In this document: positions 6,915 to 45,610 of the stretch, piece by piece
How the letters are laid out: every line of letters starts with the position of its first letter
Numbering within the stretch: position 1 is the stretch's first letter
NCBI GenBank assembly: GCA_963743335.1
Contig: CAVUPI010000004.1
Span: 191,976 to 255,975, forward strand
Source of the DNA: an uncultured Acidobacteriota bacterium
Lineage (GTDB): Bacteria; Acidobacteriota; Terriglobia; Acidiferrales; UBA7541
Reading direction: 5' to 3'
Length of the DNA: 64,000 nucleotides
Translations under genes and position numbers: made by a program
The notes under the pieces: generated by a model
The model's input: only the letters and a program-made list of their open reading frames with translations
Database searches by the model: none
Told to the model about the DNA's origin: nothing

Positions 6915-7559
6915 CTATGCTTCGAGTCGATCGATCTCGCAAGCATCCCGAATGCCGGACCGGTCTTCAGCCCCGACCTTGCGGAGGATTCGGTGAATAT
7001 GACTCTTGATGGTCTGTTCCGAGACGCTCAATTCCGCGGCGATTTCCTTGTTGGTGAGACCGCGCCCAACCAGCGGCACCAACTGCTGTTCCCGTCGCGT
7101 CAGGCCGAAAGGCGTTCGTCGTCGTGTCCGAGCCTCGGCCTTTAGCGACGACACGGACTCAAACAGCACGCGCATGAGGCGTCCGGGGCAGACCGCTTCG
7201 CCACGGGCGACCCCGCGGACTGCCGCGATTACGTCTGCCGCAGCCGCCTCCTGTAGCACATAGCCGAGAACTCCATGCCGCACTGCCTCCAGGAAATCCC
7301 TCGGATCATCCTGCATCGCGACTAATATCCATCCGGGCCGCTCACAACTCACCGGATTTCCACCGAGGCTCTCGACCACGCACTTCAACGAATCCGACAC
7401 CCAGACCCCCGCTTTCGCTCTGCCCGCCGGGTGCCCCTCAGCGCTGGGCCGCTCGGATGCCACGACCGTGAATTCCCGCTTCTGCGTGAGGATTCGCGCG
7501 ATCGACTCCCGCAGTAGGCGGTTACTCGATACGATGGTTACCGACGTCTTTTCTTCCAT
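6915..7559 (-). CDS. LuxR/NarL-family transcriptional regulator with a degenerate (pseudo-)receiver domain
   Basis: C-terminal HTH LTRREQQLVPLVGRGLTNKEIAAELSVSEQTIKSHIHRILRKVG. The N-terminus aligns to NarL-type receivers, but DD is replaced by SS (VTIVSSNRLL) and the conserved Lys by Gln (GYVLQE). The ORF-track start (TTG at 7601) was trimmed to the ATG at 7559 (MEEKTSV). The start remains uncertain. Confidence 0.75.
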   Translation of the reverse strand: MEEKTSVTIVSSNRLLRESIARILTQKREFTVVASERPSAEGHPAGRAKAGVWVSDSLKCVVESLGGNPVSCERPGWILVAMQDDPRDFLEAVRHGVLGYVLQEAAAADVIAAVRGVARGEAVCPGRLMRVLFESVSSLKAEARTRRRTPFGLTRREQQLVPLVGRGLTNKEIAAELSVSEQTIKSHIHRILRKVGAEDRSGIRDACEIDRLEA

Positions 7560-8144
7560 CAGCAATGCCCGTTTTTTTAATCGCCGACTGCGCTTGCCCA
7601 AGAGTGAATCATTACAGCGAGCAGCTTACAGGTAAAGTACTATTTTGTAACGGTACCATGCATCGCGCACATTTCTCGTTAGTTCCGTCTCTGAACTGCG
7701 AGCCCACTCGAAGCAGCACCCGATTTGATACATCATTACTGACGGTCCCATTTGTGAATTCTGCGTATTGGCGACCCCACTCGCGTACCGCGGAGTTTAT
7801 CTCAGGCTGTCTGCAGTCTCGGCCGTAGGCCTGGCCTCGAACCGACACCGTTCGCCGACCCCAATCGCTTTGGAGTCGGCCCCCCGCTCGGAAATGGGTC
7901 CACTCTCCTGATGGAACTCATCGACCGTCTGCCTTTTTTCCGTGATCCCCTCGCAGTTGGGCGACCTTCGCCCGCTATGGAGAGCAGGCCATAAGCGCTT
8001 CAGCCTGTCAGTAGGTCACAAAAGACCATGTCTGGCTACTAGGTGCATGCCAGCACCTACGCACAGCGGAACGCGATGGAGACGGTTTCAATCGGTGCAA
8101 ATGCACGGAGTCGGAAAACCAACGGTATTTAGATGCATAGGTTT

Positions 8145-8219
8145 TGGTAGGGGCGGTGGGGATCGGACCCACGACCTTCGGCTTAAAAGGCCGCTGCTCT
8201 ACCACTGAGCTACGCCCCT
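8145..8219 (-). tRNA. tRNA-Lys (anticodon UUU), CCA encoded
   Basis: The reverse complement folds as a 75-nt cloverleaf. Acceptor AGGGGCG/CGCCCCT; D arm GCTC-AGTGGTA-GAGC; anticodon arm GCGGC-CTTTTAA-GCCGA; variable loop AGGTC; T arm GTGGG-TCCGATC-CCCAC; discriminator A; CCA. Two oddities: C instead of U at T-loop position 55, and a G27-A43 mismatch. Confidence 0.85.
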
Positions 8220-8549
8220 GCAAAGCGGTCACATCATCTTACACGAAGTAAGAGTTCTTCGACATTCACGGCGTCGCGAAACCTCGATCGTTCCATCTCT
8301 AGCGGGTCGGCTGACGGTTGCACCGCAGTCGAGATCTTGCCTCTTTGGAAACCATAGGGTGTTTCCCGTACGTTCCGTACAGCAAATACCCTAGAGCGGC
8401 CGGGTGCGCGCATGTGTTAATCAAGGGCATTTAATATGGCGTCTATGTCTCTAACTATGTAATTGAAAACGCAGCATCTTCTGCGAGCATATCCAAGCGC
8501 AGAGACAGAGCAGCCCCTTGCCCTCAATTTTCGTTCGTCCGGAGAATGC

Positions 8550-14867
<6,318 letters not shown>

Positions 14868-14934
14868 GGGAAAAAATGCTGTGTCTCATGGCACCGCAAA
14901 CGCGGTTTCGGGTTGGCAAGATGGGAGGAGTCGC

Positions 14935-16044
14935 ATGAGGGAACAGGACAAGGTCAACATCCTGATGGTGGATGATCAGCCTGCCAAGCTGCTCAGTTAC
15001 GAAGCAATTCTAGGCGAGCTTGGCGAGAACCTCATCAAGGCGAACTCCGGCCGCGAGGCGCTGGAATATTTGCTCAAATCGGACATCGCGGTCGTCCTGA
15101 TGGACGTCAGCATGCCCGAGATCGACGGCTTCGAGCTCGCCGAAATGATCCGGCAGCATCCTCGCTTCCAGACCACCGCGATCATTTTCATTTCGGCCGT
15201 CCATCTGACCGACCTCGATCGCCTGAAGGGATACGAACGCGGCGCGGTTGATTACATCTCCGTCCCCGTAATTCCCGAGCTGTTGCGCGCCAAGGTGAGC
15301 ATCTTTGCCGAGCTTCATCGCAAGACCAACCAGCTCAAAGTGCTCAATCGCGAATTGCGGCATCTCTCGGGCAGCCTGATCGCCGCGCAGGACGAAGAGC
15401 GCCGCCGCATCGCTCGCGACCTACACGACGGCCTCGGCCAGGATCTGGCGGCCGCGAAAATGATCGCGGATAGCGTGTTCAGCCAGGACCACATCGCGAA
15501 TCCCACCAAGCAGGCGCTCTCCGACGTGAGTTCGCTGATCGAGCGCGCGATTCAGGAGGTGCGCAGCATCTCCTACCTGCTGCATCCTCCGCTACTCGAC
15601 GAAGTCGGGCTTCCCTCGGCACTGCAGTGGTATCTCGAAGGCGTCACGAAGCGCACCGGCATCGAAACGTCTCTCGAAGCAAAACCGACGGATTTCCCGC
15701 GGCTTTCGCCGGAGCTCGAAACAACGGTCTTCCGCATCGTGCAGGAGGCGCTCACCAACGTCTTCCGCCATTCAGGGGCCCGGAACGCGTGGGTGAGCCT
15801 CACGAAGGACGAGCAACAGGTGATCGGCACCGTCCGCGACGATGGCAAAGGCATCTCGGATCGCACGGCGGAATTTCAACCGGATAGCATCGGCGTCGGA
15901 ATCGGCGGGATGAGGCAGCGCGTGAAAGAATTCGGCGGCGAACTGCTGATACGGAATGCCAATCCGGGGACGGTGCTCGAAGTCGTGATCCCACTCACTT
16001 CTACGGCGGCGCGCTTCGAAGCATCGCCCGCCACGATGGGATAG
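14935..16044 (+). CDS. Receiver-domain-fused HisKA_3-type histidine kinase (REC - coiled coil - HisKA_3 - HATPase_c)
   Basis: Start trimmed to the ATG at 14935, preceded by GGGAGGAG. REC: NILMVDDQP...VVLMDVSMPEIDG...ISAV. HisKA_3 H-box: EERRRIARDLHDGLGQDL. ATPase: EALTNVFRHSGA...DDGKG...GVGIGGMRQR. Confidence 0.85.
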   Translation: MREQDKVNILMVDDQPAKLLSYEAILGELGENLIKANSGREALEYLLKSDIAVVLMDVSMPEIDGFELAEMIRQHPRFQTTAIIFISAVHLTDLDRLKGYERGAVDYISVPVIPELLRAKVSIFAELHRKTNQLKVLNRELRHLSGSLIAAQDEERRRIARDLHDGLGQDLAAAKMIADSVFSQDHIANPTKQALSDVSSLIERAIQEVRSISYLLHPPLLDEVGLPSALQWYLEGVTKRTGIETSLEAKPTDFPRLSPELETTVFRIVQEALTNVFRHSGARNAWVSLTKDEQQVIGTVRDDGKGISDRTAEFQPDSIGVGIGGMRQRVKEFGGELLIRNANPGTVLEVVIPLTSTAARFEASPATMG

Positions 16045-18745: not shown

Positions 18746-19222
18746 CTACTTCTTGAAGAGATCTTCGAAGGCCTTGCGTGCGTCGTTGGGCCGTGCGGCG
18801 GTCGTTGCGACCGGAGCAGCGCTCGCGTAATTCACTGGCGACGTATCTTTTTCGATCGTGACCCGAAAATCGAAAAACTTGCAATCGTTCTTCGCGTCCT
18901 TCTTCGCAACCCTCTCCGTGATCGGTTCCGTGCATTCGAACTGCTTCCCCGTATCGAAATGCACGCATTGCTTGCACGAATGCAGCTCGAACTGGCAGCG
19001 CGGGCACTGCGAATTGAGGTCGAAGCCCGGAGCCAGCACCGCGCCGCAGTTCGAACACCTCGCCCGCGACACCGTACCGACCATTCGCGGCGTCCGCGGC
19101 CCCAGCATATCCTGCTTGGGACGCGGCGGCTGCGGCGGCCGATCGGCGCGCTCCGCCCGCTCGCGCTTCTTATCTTCCGCTTCGCGGTCGCTATAACCCC
19201 TTTGCCTATACTTCCGCTCCAT
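18746..19222 (-). CDS. Hypothetical zinc-ribbon protein with a Lys/Arg/Glu-rich N-terminus
   Basis: 158 aa. AGGAGG lies upstream of the ATG. Cys pairs: CSNCG..CPRC..CKQC..C. Confidence 0.6.
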   Translation of the reverse strand: MERKYRQRGYSDREAEDKKRERAERADRPPQPPRPKQDMLGPRTPRMVGTVSRARCSNCGAVLAPGFDLNSQCPRCQFELHSCKQCVHFDTGKQFECTEPITERVAKKDAKNDCKFFDFRVTIEKDTSPVNYASAAPVATTAARPNDARKAFEDLFKK

Positions 19223-19347: not shown

Positions 19348-20787
19348 TCACGAGAGAGAGGCCTGCGTTCGCTTTGCCCAAACCTTTGAAAGCCCTTCGA
19401 ACGCCACATCCGCCTGCACGAATTTTCTCGGTTCGCCGAAACTCGCGAGCGTCTCTTCGGCTGCCAGATAACCGCTGCGCACCGCACCTTCCATCGTGGC
19501 CGGCCATCCGGTGCGTGTCCAATCGCCCGCGAGAAACATGCCCGCCACCCCGGTTTTCTGCGCCGGGCGCCACTGGTCGACTCCCGGCTCAGGCGAAAAC
19601 GTCGCGTGGACTTCCTTGATCACCGTCGCTTTTTCGAGCTTCGCATCGCGGGTCCCGGGAAGCACTTCCTCGAGTTCCCGCCGGCAGAGGTCGATGATGT
19701 CCTGCCGCGACCGCGGCACCAGGTCATATGACGCGCTAATCACGAGCTGAAGGTACTGGCCTTTTGGCGGCCCGTCGCCGTTCGTGCCCGCATGCGCGTA
19801 CAGCAGCGACTTATTGAAAATCCACTGCGTCGTATGATCCAGCAGCGCCAGAAATGGCTCCTTCATCACCACGCGGTCAAACCACAAGTGCACGCCCGTA
19901 ATCGGCGACGTCCGGATGTGCTGCAGGCCGGCCAGCATCCCGCCTTCTTCGCCCATCGCCGCGGGCAGCATTCCCAGCAGGACGTCGTGCGGCACCGCCG
20001 CCACGCACGCATCCGCCGCAATCTCGGTCCCGTCTTCGAGCACGGCGCCGGCAAACCGGTTCTCACGGACGCGAATTTCCCGCACTCCGCAGCGAAGCCT
20101 TACTTCTCCGCCCTTGCGCACGATGGCGTCGCGGCAACCCTCATGCAGCTCGCCCAGCGGCACGGAAGGAATCCCGACGCGATATCCGCCGCGGCTCCCG
20201 AGAAACGCCTTCCAGAAAACGTCGATGCCGTATCGCGCGTCCATCCGCGAAAGCTCTTCGTCCAGCGCGCTCACCAATACGACGCGCCAGAACCGCTCGA
20301 TCGCGTCCGGCGTCTGCCGCATTCGATGCAGCCAGTCGAGCATCGTGACGCCGTCGCTCTTGGGCGGCTTCCCGCCGGCCCGCGCGATCGCCATCAGCGC
20401 CTTGGCGATGCCAGCCTTATCCGCAAGCCCCAGCGCCCCGAAACCCAGGAACGACGGCGCCATGTGCAGCGGCGGCGGCAGCATCGAAGCCTGGATCGTC
20501 GACCGGTGGCCTTCGCGATCCGCGAAATACAGCCGGTCGTAGAACCGGATCTTCCCGTCCGCGCCCGCGCGCCGGTAAAAGTCGGCGAGGTTCGTGCAGC
20601 ACCCGAGCGTCACGTGCTGGCAATTGTCGACTTCGCTGCCGTCGGGCAGCGTATAGGAAGTGGCTCGTCCGCCCAGGTGTGGACGCTTTTCGAAAAGCCG
20701 GACTTTGAGTCCCGATTCAGCCAGCGCGACGGCGCAGGCCAAACCCGCCAGACCGCCGCCGATCACCAGAACGCTTTGCGAGGACAT
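19348..20787 (-). CDS. hpnE: Hydroxysqualene dehydroxylase HpnE (FAD-dependent amine-oxidase fold)
   Basis: N-terminal dinucleotide-binding motif VLVIGGGLAGLACAVALAESG..V.LFE. It lies immediately downstream of the squalene-synthase-like genes in the hopanoid operon. Confidence 0.85.
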   Translation of the reverse strand: MSSQSVLVIGGGLAGLACAVALAESGLKVRLFEKRPHLGGRATSYTLPDGSEVDNCQHVTLGCCTNLADFYRRAGADGKIRFYDRLYFADREGHRSTIQASMLPPPLHMAPSFLGFGALGLADKAGIAKALMAIARAGGKPPKSDGVTMLDWLHRMRQTPDAIERFWRVVLVSALDEELSRMDARYGIDVFWKAFLGSRGGYRVGIPSVPLGELHEGCRDAIVRKGGEVRLRCGVREIRVRENRFAGAVLEDGTEIAADACVAAVPHDVLLGMLPAAMGEEGGMLAGLQHIRTSPITGVHLWFDRVVMKEPFLALLDHTTQWIFNKSLLYAHAGTNGDGPPKGQYLQLVISASYDLVPRSRQDIIDLCRRELEEVLPGTRDAKLEKATVIKEVHATFSPEPGVDQWRPAQKTGVAGMFLAGDWTRTGWPATMEGAVRSGYLAAEETLASFGEPRKFVQADVAFEGLSKVWAKRTQASLS

Positions 20788-22654
20788 CCCTTTTCCACCC
20801 GATGCGTGCGGTCAGTAGATACTGGACTTTCTCGGTGCTCGACAGGGACACGCGAGAGGAAAACACGTCGAAGCCGCGCTCTTCGATGCGCGCGAGCAGC
20901 GTGCTGTACGTCCGGATCAGCGCCGCGAGAGTTGCCCGGCTGTCCGCATCCACCTGATTCACGAGCGGCGCGCCTTCTTCATAGAGCCGCCACGCCCGTT
21001 CCGATTCGAACGCCAGCAGATCGCGCAGCCCCGCCGTGAGCGGCCCTCGTAGGTCGGCCGAAGCACACCCGAAACGTTGGATGTCCTCATCCGGCAGGTA
21101 GATGCGGCCCATCTCGAAATCGGCCCGCACGTCGCGCAAGATGTTCGTCAACTGGAACGCAAGCCCGAGCCGCTCGGCCAGGTCCGGCGAGCGCGGATCG
21201 CGGAAGCCGAAAACATACAGGCACGTCAGCCCTACCGTGCCCGCCACCCGGTAGCAATATTCAGAGAGCCGGTCAAATGTCGCATACGACGAGACCGTCA
21301 GGTCCATCTCCGCGCCCGAGACCAAATCGTGGAAGTAGCGCGTCGGAATCTCGAATCGCGCGATCGTATCGGCAAGCGCCGGCAGAACCGGATGTCCGAC
21401 GGTGTTACCCCCCGCCGCTTCGTCCAGCTTGGCGCGCCATTGCGCCAGCCCTCGGCGCTTCGATTCGAGGTCGCCCGGCTCGTCCGACACGTCGTCCACC
21501 AACCGCATGAAAGCGTACAGCGCGCAAAGGGCATCGCGCTTCGGCTTGGGCAGTCCGAAGAACGCGAGATAAAAGCTGCTGCGCGACGCGCGCGTGATCC
21601 GGTTGCATTCCGCATAGGACGCTCTTACCGCTCCGGTATCCGTCGGCGATCGCATCGTATGAACGCCCGACGGAATAGCGCCGTGCGAACTCTCGCCGGA
21701 TGCCGTAATCCGCGAAGCGCCGCTCGCACCGTCGTCGGAGCCCCTACCCGTGAACGCTCGCCGCGCGAGCGCCCCGCCCAGCAATCCCAGTTGCCTGAAT
21801 TTCGAAATGGACGGGCGTCGCTCGAGCGTGTTGTACCCCGATTGCTCGATCGCATCCAGTACGGCCAAGCCGCCGCGGCTGAACATCTCGATATCGACGC
21901 GTAGCGCCCCTTCCAGCCGCTCCGCCAGCGGCAGGCCCGCGGCAAACAATTCCCGCGTCCGCGCGATCAGCGACTTCATCAGCGTGACGTAACGCTCGTC
22001 AAAGTGGCGCCCGGTAATATCAGCCTCGGTCAAACCGTGCGCAGCCAAAGCGTCGAGCGGGATGTAAACGCGTCCCTTTTCGAGGTCGCGCGAAACGTCC
22101 TGCCAGAAATTCGCCAGCTGCAGCGCCGTGCACGTAAAATCCGATAGCCGCTGTCGCTCCGCGTCGCGATAGCCGCAAAGATACAGCACCAACCGCCCGA
22201 CGGGATTCGCCGAATAGACGCAATATCCCAGCACGTCGTCCCACGTGGCGTAGCGGCGCACCACTTGATCATGGCGGAACGCGCGCAGCAAATTGCTGAA
22301 CGGCTCGACCGGAATATCCTTCGCGCGAATCGTCTCCCGCAGCGCGATCAACACCGGATGCGAAGGCCGCCGCCCCGGCTCGTAGATCAGCCGAAGCTCT
22401 TCCTCCCAAGCGTCGAGCAATTCCAGCGCCCGGGCGCGATCCAGCACCTCATCGCCCAGATCATCCGACCAGCGGCAATACGCATACACGTTGTAGAAAT
22501 GCTGGTGGAGATGCCGGGGCAGCAGCCACGAAACCACGCTGAAATTCTCGTAGTGGTGCGTCGCGAGCCAGCGCGTATAGCGCTGGGCCTCCTCCGCCGC
22601 GCATCCTTGCGCGGGGAGATTGCGCGCAATCTCCAATTCAGGTGTTGGCAGCAT
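20717..22654 (-). CDS. hpnCD: Fused HpnC-HpnD: hydroxysqualene synthase plus presqualene diphosphate synthase, two squalene/phytoene-synthase domains (645 aa)
   Basis: The N-terminal domain has HHYENFSVVSWLLP...YAYCRWSDDLGDE (HpnC-like). A Gly/Ser-rich linker of ~35 aa follows. The C-terminal domain has SSFYLAFFGLPKPKRDALCALYAFMRLVDDVSDE (HpnD-like). This is a single uninterrupted frame. The last 71 nt overlap hpnE. Confidence 0.85.
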   Translation of the reverse strand: MLPTPELEIARNLPAQGCAAEEAQRYTRWLATHHYENFSVVSWLLPRHLHQHFYNVYAYCRWSDDLGDEVLDRARALELLDAWEEELRLIYEPGRRPSHPVLIALRETIRAKDIPVEPFSNLLRAFRHDQVVRRYATWDDVLGYCVYSANPVGRLVLYLCGYRDAERQRLSDFTCTALQLANFWQDVSRDLEKGRVYIPLDALAAHGLTEADITGRHFDERYVTLMKSLIARTRELFAAGLPLAERLEGALRVDIEMFSRGGLAVLDAIEQSGYNTLERRPSISKFRQLGLLGGALARRAFTGRGSDDGASGASRITASGESSHGAIPSGVHTMRSPTDTGAVRASYAECNRITRASRSSFYLAFFGLPKPKRDALCALYAFMRLVDDVSDEPGDLESKRRGLAQWRAKLDEAAGGNTVGHPVLPALADTIARFEIPTRYFHDLVSGAEMDLTVSSYATFDRLSEYCYRVAGTVGLTCLYVFGFRDPRSPDLAERLGLAFQLTNILRDVRADFEMGRIYLPDEDIQRFGCASADLRGPLTAGLRDLLAFESERAWRLYEEGAPLVNQVDADSRATLAALIRTYSTLLARIEERGFDVFSSRVSLSSTEKVQYLLTARIGWKRDVLAKRSGDRRRSGGFGLRRRAG

Positions 22655-22678
22655 GAAACCTAACGCCGGGGACAGCGC

Positions 22679-23740
22679 TCAGGGGATGACGGCTGTCTTC
22701 AACTCGCCGTTCCGGTTCTTCATATGCTCGAAGACGCGAGGAAGGTCCGCGAGCGGCACTTCGCCGGTAATGAAATCGCGAGCGCGAATCTCGCCGCGCG
22801 CGATCGTGTCGAGAGCCTCGCGGATAAACCGCGGCGTGTGATGGAACGTCGATTTGATCGTGATCTCGGAATAGTGCAGCGCCCACGGATCGATCTTCAC
22901 TTCCGTTCCCTTCGCGCAACCCGCGAAGAGATTCACCGTGCCGCCCTTGCGGACCATTTCGAGCGCCCACTGCCAGGTAATCGGCTGGCCGGCCGCTTCG
23001 ATCACGGCATCCGCGCCGCGTCCGCCTTCGGTCAGCTCCCTCACCCGGCTTACCGGGTTATCGATCTCGGAGACGTCAAACGCCGCATGCGCTCCAAACC
23101 GCTCGGCCGCCTGCTTGCGCACCGCGCGCCGCGCCACCGCGATCACGCGCACCTTGCGCTGCGAAAGAATCCGTATGAATTCGAGTCCGATCGGCCCGCA
23201 GCCGATCACCACCACCGTATCGCCTGCCTTGATGCCGGTCTCGTGAATTCCGCGCAGCACGCACGCCAGCGGCTCGACCATCGCCGCGTCGAGGAACGAC
23301 ATCCCGTCGGGAATCTCCAGCATGTTCTCGCGGACGATGCGTCCGGGAATGCGAATGTATTCCGCGTACGCGCCGTTATTGAAAAGAAGGTCTTCGCAGA
23401 GGTTCGGCTGGCCCTTCTTGCAGTAGAAACAGACGTTGCACGGCGCCGAATTCGCCGGCACCACGCGCATTCCCTTGTGAACGCCTCCGTTCACCTTGCG
23501 GCCCTGATCCTCAATGATTCCCGCGCATTCGTGCCCAAAGAGCGCCGGCGGCTGAATCATGCGCGCGTGAAATCCCTGCTTCCAAACTTTGAGATCCGTG
23601 CCGCACGTGAGCGCCACCGACACCCGCACCAGCACTTCGTCGTCGGCAATCTGCGGCTTTTCGACGCGCTCGATCTTCACATCTTCGCGGCCGTACAACA
23701 CTGCCGCGGTCATGTGCCCGTTTCTATCTGCCTCTCTCAT
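22679..23740 (-). CDS. Zn-dependent medium-chain dehydrogenase/reductase (sorbitol/threonine dehydrogenase-like)
   Basis: Catalytic-Zn ligands CGTD...GHE. Structural Zn site CNVCFYCKKGQPNLC. NAD(P) site GCGPIG. The ATG at 23740 overlaps the upstream stop (ATGA). An alternative ATG lies at 23713. Confidence 0.85.
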   Translation of the reverse strand: MREADRNGHMTAAVLYGREDVKIERVEKPQIADDEVLVRVSVALTCGTDLKVWKQGFHARMIQPPALFGHECAGIIEDQGRKVNGGVHKGMRVVPANSAPCNVCFYCKKGQPNLCEDLLFNNGAYAEYIRIPGRIVRENMLEIPDGMSFLDAAMVEPLACVLRGIHETGIKAGDTVVVIGCGPIGLEFIRILSQRKVRVIAVARRAVRKQAAERFGAHAAFDVSEIDNPVSRVRELTEGGRGADAVIEAAGQPITWQWALEMVRKGGTVNLFAGCAKGTEVKIDPWALHYSEITIKSTFHHTPRFIREALDTIARGEIRARDFITGEVPLADLPRVFEHMKNRNGELKTAVIP

Positions 23741-24843
23741 CCGTGCGTGATCACCACTTTCAAGGTATCGTCCTTCGGCCGCGCCGCAAGTTCGAGTGCG
23801 TCCGCGATGCGCTCCAGCGGGAAGCGGTGCGAGATTATCTCGCGCACCGGCAAACGTCGTTCGAAAACGAGCGCGGCGGACTCGGCCTGATCGTCCACCG
23901 AAGCGCTATAACTTCCCAGAATCTCTTTCTCTTCGATTCCCACGGCAGCCGCGGGAAAGTCGATTTGCAGCACCGGATCGTTATGAGCAAACAGTAACAC
24001 GCGCCCGCCCGGTCGCGCGAGAGCCAGGGCCTCGGGCACCAATGACGGGTTGGGCACGGCCAGCAGCACGGCGTCCGCGCCTCGTCCTTCGGTTCGCCGG
24101 CGCATTTCCTCGAGCAAGTTCGTCTTCGCCGGATCGAACGATTCCTTCGCCCCGAAGCGAACGCTCGCGGCGCGGCGCCCTGCCATCGGGTCGCTCGAAT
24201 ACACGATCGCGCCTTCGTGCGCGGCCAGCATCGTCAAAAGCATTCCAATCGGTCCCTGCCCGATCGCGAGAATCGTCTCGCCCGCGGCCACGCGCGCCTT
24301 GCGAATCGCTTTTAGCGCCGTGTTCACTGGCTCGACGAAGGTCGCCTCCTCGAAACTCACATCGGCCGGCAGCGCAATCATTCCGCGCTCCACGATCCAC
24401 GGCATCGCCCGCACGTACTCCGCGAATCCGCCGCCGTTCGGGTCGAAGCCCGCCGTCAGGCCCGTCTTCTTGTAGCCCGCGCACTGCGAGAAAAGTTTTC
24501 GCTCGCAATAGAAGCAGCTGCCGCACGGGATGTGGTGGAAGCTCACCACGCGATCGCCCGCCTTGAATTTCTTTACGCCCCGTCCCACGCGGACAACGGT
24601 TCCCGCGAGCTCGTGGCCCAGAATCTGCGGCGGCGCGATGAAGCCATGATGGATCTTCTTGATGTCGGTCCCGCAGATGCCGCACGCCGCCACGCGAAAC
24701 AGCAATTCTCCTTCGCCGATCTCTGGAATCGGAACCTGCTCGACCACCACGCGGCCCTTGCCGCGATACACGCCCGCGCGCATCTGTCCGCCGCCGCTTC
24801 GCGACGTTTCGTGCGATCCGATGTCGATGACGGTGTGGCTCAT
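23737..24843 (-). CDS. Zn-dependent medium-chain dehydrogenase/reductase (second paralog)
   Basis: Catalytic-Zn ligands CGICGTD...GHE. Structural Zn site CGSCFYCERKLFSQC. NAD(P) site GQGPIG. The ATG at 24843 overlaps the hpnG-like stop (ATGA). An alternative ATG at 24783 gives MRAGVYRG. Confidence 0.85.
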   Translation of the reverse strand: MSHTVIDIGSHETSRSGGGQMRAGVYRGKGRVVVEQVPIPEIGEGELLFRVAACGICGTDIKKIHHGFIAPPQILGHELAGTVVRVGRGVKKFKAGDRVVSFHHIPCGSCFYCERKLFSQCAGYKKTGLTAGFDPNGGGFAEYVRAMPWIVERGMIALPADVSFEEATFVEPVNTALKAIRKARVAAGETILAIGQGPIGMLLTMLAAHEGAIVYSSDPMAGRRAASVRFGAKESFDPAKTNLLEEMRRRTEGRGADAVLLAVPNPSLVPEALALARPGGRVLLFAHNDPVLQIDFPAAAVGIEEKEILGSYSASVDDQAESAALVFERRLPVREIISHRFPLERIADALELAARPKDDTLKVVITHG

Positions 24844-25601
24844 ATCGCGAGCGCCTCGGATTTGGCGACTTCAGGGAGAGGATCGAGCGTCACGCGCTGA
24901 GCGTACGCATCGAGGAAATGGGCCAGCGCCGTCGCGGCTCGTTCGCTTTCCTGAGCCAGCCGAATCAATCCGCCAATTCGATGCGGCCGTGCCGCGAGCT
25001 GCCGCAAAACCCTCGGCACGCTCACCACTCCGCGCTCGTTGAACGTCCGATCGAAATCGAGCGGAAGATCCGACTCGGCGCCGTCGCTGATCGCGCGAAT
25101 CGCCACGGCCGGAATGTCCTGGTGTGACGCAGCAGCCAGGATGTAAAGGCTCTCCATATCCACCGCGTCGCCGGAAAAGCCCAGGGTCTTCTTCTCCTGC
25201 GCCGTTGAAACCACGCGATCGGAAACGAGAAATTTCTCGACAACCTTGGCGCCGCAATCGCCCGCGCGCGAAATCAAGTTCGCGTCGCTCCTCATCAATC
25301 TCGTCCCGGCAACGTCTCCCACGGTCCGCGCCGCGAGGACCGCGCTCGGACGATATTCCGGCTTCAGCGCACCCGCGAGCCCGGATACGATGCAAACATC
25401 CGGCGCCTGATCGAACGCCTGTCGCAGGCTCTGCTGCACCGCGAAGCGTCCCGCGCCCGTTACGATGACTTGCACGTCCACCGACCCAACCTTTGCACGG
25501 TACGCCTGGTCCCACGCATCAACAGACACACGCTGAAACCGCCGCATCTTGCGCCACGGCGCGAACTCGTTCTCGAGTGCGAATGTGACCAGTATTCTCA
25601 T
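24840..25601 (-). CDS. hpnG: PNP/MTAN-family nucleosidase, probable hopanoid-associated HpnG (adenosylhopane nucleosidase)
   Basis: MRILVTFALENE...GDAVDMESLYILAAA...AIRAISD is typical of the phosphorylase/nucleosidase family 1. It sits between hpnA and the rest of the hopanoid operon. Trimmed from the TTG at 25613 to the ATG at 25601. Confidence 0.65.
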   Translation of the reverse strand: MRILVTFALENEFAPWRKMRRFQRVSVDAWDQAYRAKVGSVDVQVIVTGAGRFAVQQSLRQAFDQAPDVCIVSGLAGALKPEYRPSAVLAARTVGDVAGTRLMRSDANLISRAGDCGAKVVEKFLVSDRVVSTAQEKKTLGFSGDAVDMESLYILAAASHQDIPAVAIRAISDGAESDLPLDFDRTFNERGVVSVPRVLRQLAARPHRIGGLIRLAQESERAATALAHFLDAYAQRVTLDPLPEVAKSEALAI

Positions 25602-25616
25602 TTGCAGTCGCAAAAC

Positions 25617-26648
25617 CTATGCCGCGGCCGCGCTCTCGATCGCCTTCGATGGAGAGCTTCCGCGGACGTATCCATGCTGCTCGTACCACCGGACGGCGCG
25701 TTCCAGCGCCGCTTCCACGGAGCCCGGCTTGTAGCCCAACTCGCGTTCCGCCTTGTCGCTCGCCACGAACATCTTGTAGCGTGACATCTTCACGCCTTCG
25801 ACCGGAATCTGCGGCTCGCGCCCGGCCAGCCGCGAAAACCATTCGTCCGCGTATCCGGCGGCCAGCGCAAAGGCATGCGGCAGCCGCACGCGCGGCGCGC
25901 GACGCCCCGCAATCGGCGCCAGCGCCTCCAGTATCTCTTTCAATGTCATGTTGCGGCAGCCGAGAATATAGCGTTCGCCGATCCGGCCTTTCTCCGCCGC
26001 AAGCAAATGTCCCGCCGCCACGTCCTCCACGGCCACCACATTCAGTCCCGTGTCGACATATGCCGGCATTTTGCCATTCAGAAAATCGACGATAATCCGT
26101 CCCGTCGGCGTCGGCTTCCAATCGCCCGGGCCGACAGGCGCCGTCGGATTCACGATCACCACCGGCACGCCCGCGCCCGCCGCTTTGATCGCTTCAATCT
26201 CCGCCAGAAATTTTGAACGCTTGTAGTGCCCGATCATTTGATCGAGGCTCGCCGGCATTTCTTCGTTCGGCAGCGTGCCGTCGCGTCCCGGCACCGCAAT
26301 CGTCGCCACGGTGCTCGTGTAAACGATTCGCTCCACGCCCGCCTGCGCGGCCGATTCAAAAAGCCGCTTCGTGCCTTCGACGTTGCTCTCGTAAATTTCC
26401 TCGGGAACCTTCGTCCACAACCGGTAATCCGCGGCCACGTGGTACACGCGACGCACGCCCTTCATGGCCCGGTCAAGCGAAAGTGCGTCCCGGAGATCGC
26501 CTTCGACGCGTTCCACCGCCAGCCCTTCGAGCGCCTGCATCTTGCTCGACGGCCGCACGAGCACACGAACGCGATTGCCCGCTGCAACGAGTTGCCGCGC
26601 GACGTGGCTTCCTACAAAGCCCGTCGAGCCGGTTACAAGCGTGGTCAT
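25617..26648 (-). CDS. hpnA: NAD-dependent epimerase/dehydratase, hopanoid-associated HpnA-like
   Basis: Starts MTTLVTGSTGFVGSHVARQL (Rossmann motif GxxGxxG). It has the YxxxK-type SDR layout (YKRSK) and lies directly downstream of shc. Confidence 0.75.
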   Translation of the reverse strand: MTTLVTGSTGFVGSHVARQLVAAGNRVRVLVRPSSKMQALEGLAVERVEGDLRDALSLDRAMKGVRRVYHVAADYRLWTKVPEEIYESNVEGTKRLFESAAQAGVERIVYTSTVATIAVPGRDGTLPNEEMPASLDQMIGHYKRSKFLAEIEAIKAAGAGVPVVIVNPTAPVGPGDWKPTPTGRIIVDFLNGKMPAYVDTGLNVVAVEDVAAGHLLAAEKGRIGERYILGCRNMTLKEILEALAPIAGRRAPRVRLPHAFALAAGYADEWFSRLAGREPQIPVEGVKMSRYKMFVASDKAERELGYKPGSVEAALERAVRWYEQHGYVRGSSPSKAIESAAAA

Positions 26649-26688
26649 AGAGTCTGGAAAACCCGAGACGTGGCGGGAGTCTTCATCA

Positions 26689-28734
26689 TTACCCCCAAAA
26701 GCCGTTTGCGTGCTCGATCTCTTCGGGGCGGATCTGGATGCCCTTAAATCGTTCCGCGTTCCTACGCAGATTATCGTAGCGCGCCAGTGCGTAGAGTGGA
26801 AAGGAGTTTCGATACAAGTGATATTTCAGATAGAACACTTGCGGAAAACCTGTGCCGGTGAACTCGCTCTCATCCCACGTGCCGTCCTGATTCTGATGCG
26901 CAACGAGCCAATCGACCGCGCGTTTCACGGCGGGATCGTCAACCGACGCCGCGCTATCCACCGCCAGCAATCCGATCAGTCCCCAAGCCGTCTGCGACGC
27001 GGTGCTCTTCCCTTTGCCCTTCAGCGCCGGATCGTAGTACGACAGCACCGTTTCGCCGAATCCGCCGTCCGCATTTTGCACCGAACGCAGCCATTGCGCC
27101 GCCTTGCGACCCTCCGGCAACGCGCCAAGCCCAATCGCTTCGAGCGCCCGCAGCACTCCGCTCGTTCCGTAGACGTAATTCACGCCCCAGCGCCCGAACC
27201 ACGCGCCCTCGGCTTCCTGCTCGCGCCGCAGAAACGCCCTGGCACGTTCGATCACGGGGTGCGTCGACGGCCATCCCAGTTGCCCGAGGCACTCAATCGC
27301 CCGCGCCGTCACGTCCGCCGTCGAGGGATCGAGCATCGCATTGTGATCGGCAAACGGAATGTGGTTCAGGAACTGCTGGTTGTTCTCGTGGTCGAACGCG
27401 CCCCAACCCCCGTCGCCGTTCTGCATGCTCAGCAGCCACGCAAGGCCGCGGCGTACGGAAGCGCGCAGCCGCTCAGGCTCCGGATCGGCCACGCGGCTCA
27501 ATCCCATCAGCACGAACGCGGTATCGTCCACATCGGGGTAAAAATCGTTGCGAAACTCGAATGCCCAGCCGCCCGGCGCCGCCTTGCGATTCTTCACCTG
27601 CCAGTCGCCGGGCCCGAGAATCTGATTCGAGACGAGCCATCGCGACGCAGCCACCAGCGACGGATGCGCCGGATTGAGCCCCGCTTCTTCGAGCGACACC
27701 ATCGCGATCGCCGTGTCCCACAGCGGCGAAATGCACGGCTGCACGCGCAGCCTGTCCTCGTCTTCAATCTCGTATCGCGCCAGGAACCCGATCTCGCGCG
27801 CCACCAGCGGGTCGGACGTATCGCCGCCCTCCGCCAGCATCGCAAAAATCGAATTCATCATCGCGGGATAGATGGTTGCCAGACCTTCGCTGCGCTCCAG
27901 CCGTTCGAGCATCCACTTGCGGGCGCGCGCCATCGCCACTTTGCGAAATGGCTTCCACGGGAGGCTCTCGTAGAGCTTCACGCTGCGACCGATCGCCAGG
28001 AAAAGGTTCTTCCACGAGACAACCTGCTTGTCCCACGCGAGAGACTGCGGCATCGCTCCCGGCTGCTTAAACAGCTCGTCGACCGTGACTCCCTTGGGCA
28101 GCGTCCACCCCGGCTTTTGCGCGTAGATCAGCGTCAACGGAATCACGATGCCGCGCGTCCACGACGACATTTCGTACAAATTCAGCGGGAACCATTCCGG
28201 CAACAGCATCAGCTCGGGCGGAATCGTGGGCACCATCCTCCAATCGATCGCGCCAACCATTGCCAGGTAGAAGCGCACGTAGGAATTTGTGGCCTCAAGC
28301 CCGCCGAGTTCATGAATCCTGTTCTTGGCTCGTTCCAGATGCGGCGCCGTCGCCGGATCACCCGCCAGGCGCAGCGCGACCCACGCCTTCACGGTCGCGT
28401 TCAGTTCCGAAGGCCCACCGTAGAAGATGTTCCAGCCGCCGTCCGGAAGCTGCCGGTCGCGGATGTACTTTGCCAGCTTCGCGGTTTTCTCGGATTTCAG
28501 TTCGCCTAGGATCTGCAGATAGAGGATGTAGTCCGATTCGAGCGTAGTATCGGCTTCCAGCTCGCCCCACCAGTACCCCGCCGGGTTTTGCGCCGACAGG
28601 AACCAATCGATCCCCCGCCGAATGGCTTCGGCAATCGGGGATTCCGTCTCCCGGCTTCGAACAGTTGCTTGCCCCGCGTCGCTTCCACCGCTCACGCGGA
28701 GTTGTGCCTCCGGTGTCATCAAGCCCTCAGACAT
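26689..28734 (-). CDS. shc: Squalene-hopene cyclase
   Basis: Catalytic DxDD motif in YPDVDDTAFVLMGL. Repeated QW motifs (e.g. QNGDGGWGAF, QNADGGFGE, QNQDGTWDE). Length is 681 aa. Confidence 0.95.
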   Translation of the reverse strand: MSEGLMTPEAQLRVSGGSDAGQATVRSRETESPIAEAIRRGIDWFLSAQNPAGYWWGELEADTTLESDYILYLQILGELKSEKTAKLAKYIRDRQLPDGGWNIFYGGPSELNATVKAWVALRLAGDPATAPHLERAKNRIHELGGLEATNSYVRFYLAMVGAIDWRMVPTIPPELMLLPEWFPLNLYEMSSWTRGIVIPLTLIYAQKPGWTLPKGVTVDELFKQPGAMPQSLAWDKQVVSWKNLFLAIGRSVKLYESLPWKPFRKVAMARARKWMLERLERSEGLATIYPAMMNSIFAMLAEGGDTSDPLVAREIGFLARYEIEDEDRLRVQPCISPLWDTAIAMVSLEEAGLNPAHPSLVAASRWLVSNQILGPGDWQVKNRKAAPGGWAFEFRNDFYPDVDDTAFVLMGLSRVADPEPERLRASVRRGLAWLLSMQNGDGGWGAFDHENNQQFLNHIPFADHNAMLDPSTADVTARAIECLGQLGWPSTHPVIERARAFLRREQEAEGAWFGRWGVNYVYGTSGVLRALEAIGLGALPEGRKAAQWLRSVQNADGGFGETVLSYYDPALKGKGKSTASQTAWGLIGLLAVDSAASVDDPAVKRAVDWLVAHQNQDGTWDESEFTGTGFPQVFYLKYHLYRNSFPLYALARYDNLRRNAERFKGIQIRPEEIEHANGFWG

Positions 28735-28984
28735 AACCTAAGATCGCTCATTAAAAAAAACGGTTCGGCCGCGCTACGCCCATCATGTCGCCCTACCGGA
28801 TAGAGGAATGCACACAATCTATCGACAATACAGGCACTTACAGGCTAACCCCTGTCCATTATCTTTCGTATCGGAGCCAGGGTCAACCGAAAACACTGCC
28901 TTGGAATCCGGCTAGCCTATACCTTAGGATGTCCATCCCGGGTTAGGGGCTGCCTGCGATTTCCCCTTCGCCGCCCGTTCTCTG

Positions 28985-30028
28985 TTACGTCGTTCGGCCG
29001 CCACCGGGAGACCGCAATTCGAGCTTCCGCACCCGTTCGGCAAGTTCCGGTAGCCGAGCAAACCACGCGTACTGGCGCTTGAATTTTTCGAGGCTCCTCG
29101 CCGGCGTGCCCCACACCACCTCGCCGCCATGAATCGTCTTGCCCGTGGGTATGCCCGCCTGCGCGCCTACAACGGCCCCATCTTCGAGCGTGCAATGGTC
29201 GGCGACCCCCACCTGCCCCCCGAGGATCACGTTCTTGCCCAACGTGCTGCTGCCCGAAACCCCGGTTTGCGCCGCCAGCACGGAGTGTTCGCCAATCTGG
29301 ACGTTGTGCGCCACCTGCACGAGATTATCGATCTTCACGCCGTTGCCCACCTGCGTCGTTTCGAGCGACCCGCGATCGATCGCGCTGTTCGCGCCGATCT
29401 CGACGTCATCGCCGACCTCCACGCTCCCGGCCTGCGGAAATTTCCAGTGCCGCCCTTCGCCAAAAACGTATCCGAATCCGTCCGCGCCAATCACCGCGCC
29501 GGAATGAACTTCGACGCGGTCTCCCAGCTTTGCGCCCGCATACAGGGTCACGCGCGGATGAAGCCTGCAGCTCTCGCCCACGCGGGCGCCCCGCCCCAAG
29601 AAACAAAACGCCTCGACGATGCTCGCTTCGCCGATACTCGCCCCGTCCTCAATCACCACGTACGGCCCGACAAACGCGCTAGGCGCTACCTTCGCGCTCG
29701 CCGCAACAATCGCCGTCGGATGCACGCTGGGACGCGGCGCAGCCTCCTTTGTCAGCAGCGCCGCCGCTTTCGCAAACGCCAGCTTGGGCTCGCGCACCTC
29801 AAGCACCGTCTTTCCGGCGATACGCATTTCCATCCCCGCAATTACGCAGACCGCTGCCGAACCAACCGCGCGGTCCTGATGCCGCGCCGAGTCGACATAA
29901 ATTAAATCCTCGGCGCGCGCACATTCGGGGCTCGCGACTCCCGTCACCTGCGCACCGGCATCTCCGTGGAGTTGCGCCCCGAGATGTTTTGCCAGTTCAC
30001 CGGCAGTGCAGGTCGCAGTGCGAGTCAT
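28985..30028 (-). CDS. lpxD: UDP-3-O-acylglucosamine N-acyltransferase
   Basis: Aligns by eye to E. coli LpxD: GADGFGY....W.K.PQ.G.V.IGD.VEIGA...IDRG.L..T.IG.GV.IDN..Q.AHNV.IG. It has left-handed beta-helix hexapeptide repeats. Trimmed to the ATG at 30028, which has AAGGAG 8 nt upstream. Confidence 0.9.
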
Positions 30029-30082
30029 CGTCAAATCTCCTTTGCAAATCCTCGGCGAAGCGCGCCCTGTGCGAATGGCGGG

Positions 30083-30988
30083 CTAGAAGCGGTAGATGGG
30101 ATCTTCCCCGGACGGCCGCGTCTTCCACCGCTTGTGCACCCAGAGCCATTGATCGGGATACTTCCGAACGTAATCCTCGACCACGCGCATGAATCTCTGC
30201 GTGGTCTCCTTCACGTCCTGCTCTTCGTCTCCAGTGCGCGCAAGCTCCACGGCCGGCTCAAAGCGCAGCCGATACTTTCGTCTCTGCCAGTCCCACGACA
30301 AAAATCCGGGCACCACTGCCGCATCCGTGCGCAGCGCCAGCCGCGCTAGCCCCGATGTCGTCGATGCGGGAATCCCGAAAAAATCGACGAACACTCCCTC
30401 TTCGATCGTCGTGTTGTGGTCCGCCAGAATTCCAACGGTTCCGCCATCCGCGAGCACTTTCAGGATCGAGCGCGCCGACCGGTTTTTCTCGATCGGCCGA
30501 TTCCCGGTGCGGCAGCGGTACGCATTGATCAGCGCATCCACGCGCCGGTTGGCAATCGGCCGCACCAGGAAGTGCAGCGGATGCCCGTACAGCGCCTGCG
30601 CGAAAGGCGCGAGTTCCCAAGCGCTCATGTGCCCCGTGAGAAAAAGCACGCCTTTGCCGCGCCGCCGCGCCACATCGAAATTCTCGAATCCATCCAGCAG
30701 GACGATCCGCTCGACATTCTCCCGCGTGTATTTCGGAAACTGCGAAAACTCGCCCGCCATCCACCCGATTTGCCGGATCATCCCGCGCGCCACTTTCCGG
30801 CGCTGCGCCTCGCTCCAATCGGGAAATGCCAAATGCAGATTGAACATCGCCGCACGTCGCAGCGGCGTGCGAATCGCGTACGCGGCTGCGGCAAAACTCG
30901 CTCCGGCCCAACGCGCGGCCGGCCTCGGCAGCAGTCCCATCAATTTCAGTCCGCTCCAGGCTGTGGCGTACTCGAGCCATTCCCGCAT
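30083..30988 (-). CDS. Lipid A biosynthesis (LpxL/HtrB-family) acyltransferase
   Basis: 301 aa with the family layout: N-terminal hydrophobic anchor, GKGVLFLTGHMSAWE (HX4D/E-type acyltransferase motif region), and C-terminal YPDQWLWVHKRWK. Confidence 0.75.
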   Translation of the reverse strand: MREWLEYATAWSGLKLMGLLPRPAARWAGASFAAAAYAIRTPLRRAAMFNLHLAFPDWSEAQRRKVARGMIRQIGWMAGEFSQFPKYTRENVERIVLLDGFENFDVARRRGKGVLFLTGHMSAWELAPFAQALYGHPLHFLVRPIANRRVDALINAYRCRTGNRPIEKNRSARSILKVLADGGTVGILADHNTTIEEGVFVDFFGIPASTTSGLARLALRTDAAVVPGFLSWDWQRRKYRLRFEPAVELARTGDEEQDVKETTQRFMRVVEDYVRKYPDQWLWVHKRWKTRPSGEDPIYRF

Positions 30989-44579: not shown

Positions 44580-45563
<984 letters not shown>

Positions 45564-45594
45564 GGTTCCTCCAGGAAGCGGGTCGATATTATTC

Positions 45595-45610
45595 AACTAA
45601 CTGGTTAGTT
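45595..45610. promoter_or_regulatory. Perfect 7-2-7 palindrome AACTAAC-TG-GTTAGTT, candidate TetR operator
   Basis: It lies 32 nt upstream of the AKR start codon, at the head of the AKR-tetR-hlyD-ABC-ABC2 gene string. Confidence 0.4.

Follow-up and report, generated by a model that had tools for sequence, protein, structure and literature searches.

Two adjacent genes for zinc-dependent medium-chain dehydrogenases, MDR1 and MDR2, lie inside the hopanoid operon described here, which belongs to an acidobacterium (Terriglobia, Acidiferrales-like), and because the same pair accompanies hopanoid genes in well over 100 relatives, it plausibly modifies the hopanoid side chain. Our leading reading, held tentatively, is that the two enzymes may form a conserved module of Terriglobia hopanoid operons for redox tailoring of the C35 side chain. 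The association of the genes with the hopanoid cluster has already been published: they correspond in identity and position to ug1 and ug2 of Sinninghe Damsté et al. 2017 (PMC5462960). Both were listed there as "genes of unknown function" in acidobacterial hopanoid clusters, ug1 in cluster C (hpnA-hpnG-ug1) and ug2 in cluster A (ug2-hpnC-hpnD-hpnE), and the ug2 product was described as an alcohol dehydrogenase of some 350 aa that binds Zn. New here are the linkage counts, the conservation of the MDRs relative to shc, the NAD/NADP signatures, the pair in Armatimonadetes, and the pairs and singletons away from hpn genes; the earlier paper contains neither the split into an NAD and an NADP type, nor the finding that ug1 and ug2 are adjacent in 100% of the loci counted, nor the occurrence beyond Acidobacteriota. 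Genes for the conversion of ribosylhopane to bacteriohopanetetrol (BHT) and for the origin of BHT side-chain isomers have been lacking for decades, and both bear on how hopanoid biomarkers from soils, peats and sediments are read. The Terriglobia, which rank with the most abundant bacteria of soil, produce hopanoids, and the MDR pair provides two concrete genes to study, although the value of the finding is limited by an association on record since 2017 and by a restricted distribution.

Gene order and coupling in the hopanoid operon

Within the window, i.e. the whole 64-kb stretch of DNA analyzed, open reading frames and family profiles gave the minus-strand gene order of the preliminary description. 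It begins with shc for squalene-hopene cyclase (26689-28734; TIGR01507, 760 bits; Pfam SQHop_cyclase_N/C) and hpnA for a hopanoid-associated SDR or "sugar epimerase" (25617-26648; TIGR03466, 478 bits, cutoff 368), and continues with a gene for an HpnG-like nucleosidase/phosphorylase (24840-25613; PNP_UDP_1), MDR1 (23737-24843; 368 aa) and MDR2 (22679-23740; 353 aa). These are followed by a fused hpnC-hpnD gene for hydroxysqualene synthase and presqualene diphosphate synthase (20717-22654; TIGR03464 at residues 31-296 and TIGR03465 at residues 354-615) and by hpnE for hydroxysqualene dehydroxylase (19348-20787; TIGR03467, 460 bits). A fused hpnCD, also seen here, is typical of subdivision 2 (PMC5462960). 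Past hpnE, a 158-aa conserved ORF (18746-19222, minus strand) keeps its synteny in Acidiferrales-like loci and has a weak Zn-ribbon as its sole family match.

As read from the sequence, shc and hpnA are separated by 40 nt, hpnA and the HpnG-like gene by 3 nt (TTG start) or 15 nt (ATG start), and MDR2 and hpnCD by 24 nt, while hpnCD and hpnE overlap. The ATGA overlaps described at the HpnG-like/MDR1 and MDR1/MDR2 junctions are present, with the start codons ambiguous between M1 and M21 in MDR1 and between M1 and M10 in MDR2. These apparent translational-coupling overlaps tie both MDR genes to the HpnG-like gene, and MDR1 and MDR2 are probably co-translated within the hopanoid operon. A scan of the region for promoters and terminators returned sites at chance level and, therefore, the idea of a single transcript rests on gene spacing. 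Because such sites do not exceed the chance number, a candidate sigma-70-like promoter upstream of shc (28858-28886, minus strand; TTGACC-17-GATAAT, 10 of 12 matches) is a lead only.

The gene upstream of MDR1 is hpnG-like, as described before. HpnG (TIGR03468) is its best NCBIfam family and the position is the right one, but the score of 108 bits is below the cutoff of 187; the gene product is, thus, a putative HpnG-like protein by position and best match and not a scored member of the HpnG family. Against TIGR03468, the corresponding ORFs of Terriglobales and Bryobacterales loci score 89-146 bits. An HpnG-like ORF lies directly upstream of MDR1 even at loci where tblastn had missed it, and of all proteins in the cluster the HpnG-like nucleosidase is conserved the least. 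As described before, hpnH was not found by tblastn in the 64-kb window. The window also contains a gene for an aldo-keto reductase (AKR) at 44580-45596, 20 kb away from the hopanoid cluster.

Catalytic sites, cofactor type and nearest relatives of MDR1 and MDR2

MDR1 and MDR2 share 33% identity, and both belong to the MDR superfamily with Pfam scores over the cutoffs (ADH_N 90.9 bits and ADH_zinc_N 60.1 bits for MDR1; 77.6 and 74.4 bits for MDR2). The catalytic, structural zinc and nucleotide-binding sites reported for both enzymes are indeed intact. In MDR1, they comprise C57/H77/E78/E171, C107/C110/C113/C121 and G195xGxxG200, all invariant in 168 MDR1-type sequences. In MDR2, they comprise C46, H70, E71 and E156, C101/C104/C107/C115 and G180xGxxG185; among 137 MDR2-type sequences, H70/E71/E156 and the structural cysteines are invariant and GxGxxG is conserved, the sole variation being at C46, which is present in 122 and replaced by Asp in 14.

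Cofactor types were read from the sequence by rule of thumb. D218 at the end of beta-2 of MDR1, conserved in 166 of the 168 sequences, aligns with the Asp of the NAD-dependent L-threonine 3-dehydrogenase (TDH) 2dq4, and we predict that MDR1 is NAD(H)-dependent. Position 203 of MDR2 is G/V/A and is followed by K/R204 and R205 (133/137 sequences), a pattern that agrees with 1e3j, an NADP-dependent ketose reductase ("TARSPRR") with which MDR2 has the Ala/Arg NADP motif in common, and with the NADP-bound 4ejm; MDR2 is, accordingly by the same rule, predicted to be NADP(H)-dependent. The two enzymes thus appear to carry complementary signatures, NAD-type in MDR1 and NADP-type in MDR2, both of which are conserved.

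The nearest characterized relatives (ketose reductase, sorbitol dehydrogenase (SDH), TDH, GatD and IolM) act on sugar alcohols or ketoses. TDH (TIGR00692/NF003808; 2dq4, 2dfv) is the best family for MDR1 and the second-best for MDR2 and has the structural zinc lobe in common with them, but the scores of 156 bits (MDR1) and 132 bits (MDR2) fall far short of the cutoff of 458, the kbl partner gene is missing here, and MDR1-type proteins carry an extra segment, "TAGFxPxGGGFAEY", relative to TDH. Similarly, the scyllo-inosose 3-dehydrogenase IolM (NF041097), an MDR acting on a cyclic polyol/ketone, is the top NCBIfam family for MDR2 (166 bits) and the second for MDR1 (154 bits), but its cutoff is 450 and an inositol catabolic context is missing here. 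MDR1 is under every NCBIfam equivalog cutoff, and the identities TDH, IolM, GatD and "HpnZ_proposed" phosphonate-associated ADH were rejected on curated cutoffs. The ketose reductase/SDH 1e3j and the mammalian SDHs 1pl6 and 3qe3 have the same MDR fold and Cys-His-Glu zinc site at about 30% identity. SDH is not known to have the structural zinc site that is present in MDR1 and MDR2. The substrates of SDH enzymes are free hexitols, attacked at C2. Of the polyol-binding residues of SDH (Ser/Thr after the catalytic Cys, Glu155 and the Arg298-Tyr299 motif), CG(T)D and Glu are kept in the MDRs; no curated SDH model passed. In MDR2, Phe-His-His aligns with Phe-Arg-Tyr of 1e3j, which suggests that polyols are not recognized in the classical way, and MDR1 has Ser-Tyr-Ser there.

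The structural comparison covered MDR1, and the AF2 model of MDR2 (pLDDT 58, shallow alignment) was left out. The AF2 model of MDR1 (pLDDT 90, residues 1-17 predicted disordered) matched MDR structures with TM scores of 0.83-0.85 and 4ej6, 1e3j and TDHs as top Foldseek matches; this confirmed no more than a generic polyol/threonine-dehydrogenase-like MDR fold.

Linkage of the MDR pair to hopanoid genes

Loci from species-representative genomes and metagenome contigs were picked solely by MDR1 similarity, in two collection scans that each covered the best 80 of more than 570 relatives, nearly all of them Terriglobia. Among the matches listed, and counting loci whose MDR1 is 49.5% identical or more, MDR2 adjoins MDR1 in 126/126 loci, hpnC/D lies at most 1.5 kb downstream in 92/98 and hpnA at most 1.8 kb upstream in 96/106. 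The linkage to hpn genes in other genomes, on which the preliminary description had made its proposal depend, thus holds in well over 100 independent loci among these matches. The arrangement is far beyond chance, and it persists between lineages whose proteins now share only about 50% identity. In the closest band, MDR1/MDR2 are 84/80% identical to their orthologues versus 74/73% for Shc/HpnE, and in the Terriglobales band 52/59% versus 48/47%; by this measure, both MDRs are conserved at least as well as Shc and HpnE. Moreover, the pair stays syntenic where the flanking lpxD and lipid A genes no longer do. Two loci (L170 and L171) considered as a distant hopanoid-linked clade were rejected as such, because their tblastn identities of 50-53% and 61-62% place them in the Terriglobales-like band.

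The tightest partners of the pair are the squalene-synthesis genes hpnC/D (92/98 among the matches listed) and not hpnG/hpnH. This constancy raises the possibility that the MDRs serve together with HpnC/D/E in squalene synthesis or act on a squalene-derived alcohol, e.g. hydroxysqualene, and not on the C35 side chain. In line with this, the pair adjoins hpnC-hpnD-hpnE with no hpnA/hpnG directly upstream in Armatimonadetes metagenome-assembled genome(s) and at locus L103, it stays with hpnCDE at L059 and L062-L064, where hpnA and shc are elsewhere or absent, and ug2 was grouped with hpnCDE previously (PMC5462960). However, in other bacteria HpnC, HpnD and HpnE are established to complete their reactions with no added dehydrogenase (Pan et al. 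2015, as cited in PMC5462960), hydrophilic polyols are the substrates of the nearest MDR relatives, and most loci, L063 with its distant hpnA among them, have an HpnG-like gene directly before MDR1. We consider a role in squalene metabolism improbable.

The pair also occurs without neighboring hpn genes, in Planctomycetota-like loci (L086, L172), in a lineage with 70% GC (L169, L173) and at L096 and L119. Cyanobacterial relatives occur singly and away from hpn genes, and a threonine aldolase gene precedes the pair in Armatimonadetes. Contexts more distant than Terriglobia come from 11 contig look-ups, and linkage statistics outside Terriglobia are, therefore, anecdotal. Together with TDH and IolM as best family matches, these occurrences would fit a dehydrogenase unit for small molecules in general, with a polyol, an amino alcohol or similar as substrate, that has no direct hopanoid role and owes its place in the operon to shared regulation or history. 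Against this, all family scores are far under the equivalog cutoffs, adjacency to hpn genes is 92-100% across orders at about 50% identity among the matches listed while other flanking genes are lost, and the coupling overlaps connect the pair to the HpnG-like gene. We regard such a unit as rather unlikely, though as the strongest competitor of side-chain tailoring. A fusion of an NTP_transferase with an MDR (P0263) was considered as a TarI/TarJ-like, i.e. ribitol-phosphate, clue; no curated model supports this identity and it is a lead only.

Possible roles in the C35 side chain

The preliminary description proposed the MDRs as enzymes of the ribosylhopane-to-BHT step or of the side chain and stated that this step has no assigned enzyme. 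The latter agrees with the literature (PMC12583986, 2025; PMC13459092, 2026). The step is enzymatic (PMC12583986), oxidation to ribonylhopane is also without an assigned enzyme (PMC4263297), and hpnA has been proposed for the BHT step while no function was given to ug1/ug2 (PMC5462960); our literature search returned no paper giving these MDRs a function. Of the proposal itself, genes that are intact, apparently co-translated and hpn-linked stand, but a general reductase role does not, and hpnC/D as the tightest partner weakens the proposal. The accompanying claim that sorbitol/threonine-dehydrogenase-type MDRs catalyze exactly this chemistry overstates the match, because these enzymes oxidize a secondary alcohol (polyol C2, threonine C3) whereas aldose C1 reduction is classically carried out by aldo-keto reductases. 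Aldose reductases of that type reduce the open-chain C1 aldehyde to the polyol with NADPH and have a fold unrelated to MDRs.

To our knowledge, no such MDR is present in the published hpn clusters of the model producers Rhodopseudomonas, Methylobacterium, Burkholderia, Zymomonas and Streptomyces, which make BHT or aminotriol. Chloracidobacterium thermophilum makes BHT and BHT cyclitol ether and lacks ug2 (PMC5462960). For these two reasons, the pair can hardly be the general reductase. In addition, hopanoid-linked orthologues among the matches listed are confined to Terriglobia plus a small number of further soil lineages, one reduction does not need two enzymes, and two enzymes with opposite cofactor signatures are not explained by a single reduction. 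Thus, even though the genes directly follow the HpnG-like gene, MDR2 has an NADP-type signature and the step lacks an assigned enzyme (PMC12583986), it is very improbable that one MDR is the missing ribosylhopane-to-BHT reductase of hopanoid producers in general. The module is lineage-restricted and, because of this restricted distribution, does not solve the general BHT problem.

In the favored reading, redox tailoring of the C35 side chain, HpnH and the HpnG-like nucleosidase would make the ribose-derived C35 polyol side chain. The NAD-type MDR1 would then act as a dehydrogenase on a side-chain hydroxyl or lactol, and the NADPH-type MDR2 as a reductase in the cell, either of the open-chain ribosylhopane aldehyde, giving BHT, or of a keto intermediate. 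We infer these substrates and directions; the hopanoid pathway has no polyol other than the BHP side chain, which matches the polyol/ketose-acting relatives of the MDRs.

A more specific version appears doubtful at present: MDR1 and MDR2 would be a couple that first oxidizes and then reduces a secondary alcohol in the BHP side chain (e.g. C-34, "C2" of the ribitol-like terminus), or would branch ribosylhopane to ribonylhopane by oxidation and to BHT by reduction. If the pair is such a couple, Terriglobia would produce BHT stereoisomers, for example BHT-34R. Our search returned no paper tying BHT-34R to Acidobacteria. Reported producers of BHT-34R and BHT-x are Komagataeibacter, Methylocella palustris, Frankia, Ca. 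Brocadia and Ca. Scalindua, and the published BHT data on cultured Acidobacteria of subdivisions 1 and 3 come from Rohmer degradation, in which the stereochemistry of the side chain is lost. If either form is true, the genes would be the first genetic marker for the stereochemistry or redox state of BHP side chains, which serve as sedimentary biomarkers. In Bacillus, the NAD+ dehydrogenase IolG and the NADPH reductase IolW form a pair that makes scyllo-inositol, and both belong to the Gfo/Idh/MocA family and not to the MDRs. The likeness to MDR1 and MDR2 would, thus, be purely functional, with a putative NAD-type oxidizer and a putative NADP-type reducer encoded together.

The dehydrogenase pair in the hopanoid cluster

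A compact hopanoid cluster spans 19348-28734 on the minus strand. It comprises shc (26689-28734; TIGR01507, 760 bits), hpnA (25617-26648; TIGR03466, 478 bits, above the cutoff), a PNP_UDP_1 nucleosidase gene (24840-25613), the genes for two Zn-dependent medium-chain dehydrogenases (MDR), MDR1 (23737-24843, 368 aa) and MDR2 (22679-23740, 353 aa), a gene for a fused HpnC-HpnD protein (20717-22654) and hpnE (19348-20787). Stop and start codons overlap (ATGA) at the hpnG/MDR1 and MDR1/MDR2 junctions; the other intergenic gaps are 3-40 nt, and the hpnCD and hpnE coordinates overlap. By tblastn, hpnH was not found within the 64,000-nt window. In many relatives, hpnH (radical SAM plus DUF3463) sits between shc and hpnA (e.g. 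at 7013-8185 in locus L001), whereas here only 40 nt (26649-26688) separate these genes and the closest relatives, L002-L008, likewise lack hpnH there. Thus, hpnH has left this position in this sub-lineage and was relocated. The preliminary description was right about the cluster in every checkable detail, i.e. gene order, ATGA overlaps, zinc sites, GxGxxG motif and hpnH lying outside the window. One caveat concerns the nucleosidase: HpnG (TIGR03468) is its best family but, since it scores 108 bits where the cutoff is 187, the protein is HpnG-like and not a scored HpnG.

MAGs of the order Candidatus Acidiferrales (Acidobacteriota, class Terriglobia) supply the closest homologues among the matches listed, with identities of up to 97%. 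Sinninghe Damsté et al. 2017 described acidobacterial clusters C (hpnA-hpnG-ug1) and A (ug2-hpnC-hpnD-hpnE), with hpnC and hpnD fused in subdivision 2 and ug2 [quoted passage not shown]; ug1 and ug2 were left as genes of unknown function, and hpnA was proposed for the step from ribosylhopane to bacteriohopanetetrol (BHT) (PMC5462960). MDR1 is ug1 and MDR2 is ug2. The operon association of the pair is, therefore, already in the literature. Neither ug1 nor ug2 is mentioned in a 2025-2026 study of microsynteny around shc.

Linkage within and beyond Terriglobia

Loci were picked by MDR1 similarity alone and comprised 80 species-representative genome loci and 80 metagenome loci, i.e. the best 80 per collection of more than 570 relatives, together with individual contig look-ups; the cluster proteins of the window were mapped onto them by tblastn. 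Among the listed loci, linkage was counted where the MDR1 orthologue reached 49.5% identity or more (Acidiferrales-, Terriglobales- or Bryobacterales-like) and the contig was long enough for the neighbour in question. The linkage to hpn genes extends to these loci: MDR2 adjoins MDR1 in 126 of 126, hpnC/D lies within 1.5 kb downstream in 92 of 98 and hpnA within 1.8 kb upstream in 96 of 106. The gap between MDR1 and MDR2 has a median of 27 nt (tblastn estimate, all 147 adjacent pairs). An HpnG-like gene was detected in 75/106 loci, and an HMM check found the upstream ORFs overlooked by tblastn to be HpnG-like as well (89-146 bits). MDR1 and MDR2 are conserved at least as well as the core enzymes Shc and HpnE, both in the closest band (84% and 80% identity versus 74% and 73%) and in the Terriglobales band (52% and 59% versus 48% and 47%); within the cluster, conservation is lowest in the HpnG-like protein (46% falling to 28%). 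Some gene calls (library proteins P0196 and P0392; L171, 10001-11761) join part of MDR1 to MDR2. Because frameshifts break up the whole region in L171, these fusions are probably assembly artefacts, which the overlapping stop/start codons would make easy.

In a whole-library search, the nearest full-length subfamily members were 40-50% identical to MDR1 and shared with it an extra segment, YKxxGxTAGFxPxGGGFAEY. In Armatimonadetes MAGs, the order is threonine aldolase, MDR, MDR and, after ~1 kb, hpnC-hpnD-hpnE; in L103, MDR-MDR-hpnC-hpnD-hpnE follows a helicase gene. Thus, all across Terriglobia, and in one or more cases beyond, the pair is part of the hopanoid operon; hpnC/D is the hopanoid gene that most constantly neighbours it. 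From this neighbourhood, a role in connection with squalene synthesis could be read; MDR1 directly follows the HpnG-like gene, however, and we regard such a role as improbable. No hpn gene was found near the pair in the Planctomycetota-like L086 and L172, the 70%-GC lineage L169 and L173, L096 or L119, and in a large cyanobacterial clade, the MDR1-like gene occurs singly and without linkage to hpn genes. These mixed contexts mark the pair as an old functional unit. They would also suit a dehydrogenase pair unrelated to hopanoids and simply kept in the operon, a reading that we consider unlikely, if less so than one tied to squalene, given the conserved linkage in Terriglobia.

Neighbour sets differ among the pairs outside hopanoid clusters (L086, L172, L169, L173 and L096): a third MDR with enoyl-CoA hydratase and 3-hydroxyacyl-CoA dehydrogenase, QueF with a PUFA-type polyketide synthase, or a methyltransferase with a PEMT-like gene. 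Library protein P0263 joins a sugar-phosphate nucleotidyltransferase domain to an MDR with 36% identity to MDR1, a fusion which hints that neighbouring subfamilies may act on polyol/sugar phosphates bound for nucleotide activation.

Enzyme family and predicted cofactors

MDR1 and MDR2 are paralogues (33% identical). Each retains the Cys/His/Glu(+Glu) ligands of the catalytic zinc, the structural zinc loop with its four Cys and the GxGxxG motif. Both stay below every curated equivalog cutoff; for the best family matches, L-threonine 3-dehydrogenase (TDH), scyllo-inosose 3-dehydrogenase (IolM) and GatD, the scores are about one third of what the cutoffs demand. The closest proteins of known structure, judged by sequence and structure, are a putative dehydrogenase of Sinorhizobium (4ej6/4ejm), the whitefly NADP-dependent ketose reductase (1e3j), TDHs, sorbitol dehydrogenases (SDHs), YdjJ and AibC; the structure comparison rests on the confident MDR1 model (pLDDT 90, N-terminal 17 residues disordered), the poor MDR2 model being left out.

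In 166/168 MDR1 sequences, the second Rossmann strand ends with Asp218, which has as its aligned counterparts the NAD-binding Asp in TDH 2dq4 and an Ala in NADP-dependent 1e3j. At this position, MDR2 has a small residue followed by Lys/Arg-Arg (133/137), the same pattern as in 1e3j (TARSPRR) and NADP-bound 4ejm. By the usual rule for cofactor specificity in Rossmann folds, we infer that MDR1 uses NAD(H) and MDR2 NADP(H). This conserved dichotomy is a feature without earlier report. In cells, such pairing typically means one oxidising and one reducing enzyme.

A possible role in side-chain redox chemistry

MDRs of the SDH/TDH type ordinarily act by oxidising secondary alcohols, not by reducing an aldose at C1, and we know of no such MDR gene in the hpn clusters of model BHT producers. 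[quoted passage not shown] 2015 for cell-free ribosylhopane reduction (PMC12583986), while a 2026 review depicts the step as non-enzymatic (PMC13459092). The proposal of the preliminary description that MDR1 and MDR2 are candidates for this reductase survives only in a narrower form. The place of the pair immediately behind the HpnG-like gene, the stop/start overlaps, the NADP-type site of MDR2 and the sugar-alcohol chemistry of the nearest relatives favour a role on the C35 side chain. Against a reductase speak, besides the usual chemistry of such MDRs and the model clusters, the restriction of the pair to few lineages, its tightest linkage to hpnCDE, the presence of two enzymes with opposite cofactor types, more than a single reduction requires, and C. 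thermophilum, which produces BHT and BHT cyclitol ether without ug2 (PMC5462960). We therefore consider a universal ribosylhopane reductase very improbable.

The best-supported reading, which we put forward tentatively, is that MDR1 and MDR2 form a redox module that is restricted to certain lineages and acts on the C35 side chain. An NAD/NADPH couple is the classical route for epimerising a secondary alcohol, and epimerisation by the pair might connect with the unexplained BHT stereoisomers. The reduction of ribosylhopane or of a keto intermediate may fall to MDR2, and the oxidation of a hydroxyl or the lactol would fall to MDR1. Other redox products of the side chain likewise have no assigned enzyme, such as the ribonylhopane found in R. 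palustris mutants and in N. europaea (PMC4263297). With its function predicted, the pair is a real, well-conserved and testable lead.

Other genes in the window

Directly after hpnE lies a 158-aa ORF (18746-19222, minus strand) with a weak Zn-ribbon match only. Its synteny holds in nearly every Acidiferrales-like locus (55-96% identity), so this ORF may be an additional hopanoid-cluster gene. On the minus strand, lpxD and an LpxL-type lipid A acyltransferase gene (28985-30988) immediately precede shc, an order syntenic only in close, Acidiferrales-like relatives, while the MDR pair persists further; this proximity is of note, as hopanoid-lipid A conjugates occur in Bradyrhizobium. An aldo-keto reductase gene (YdjG-like, below the cutoff; 44580-45596, minus strand), of the class classically expected for aldose C1 reduction, lies ~20 kb from the cluster. 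On the plus strand, a 2134-aa hybrid histidine kinase (8463-14867) combines 11-12 tandem HAMP domains with GAF, HisKA/HATPase and three receiver domains; behind it lies a kinase of receiver plus HisKA_3 type (14881-16044).
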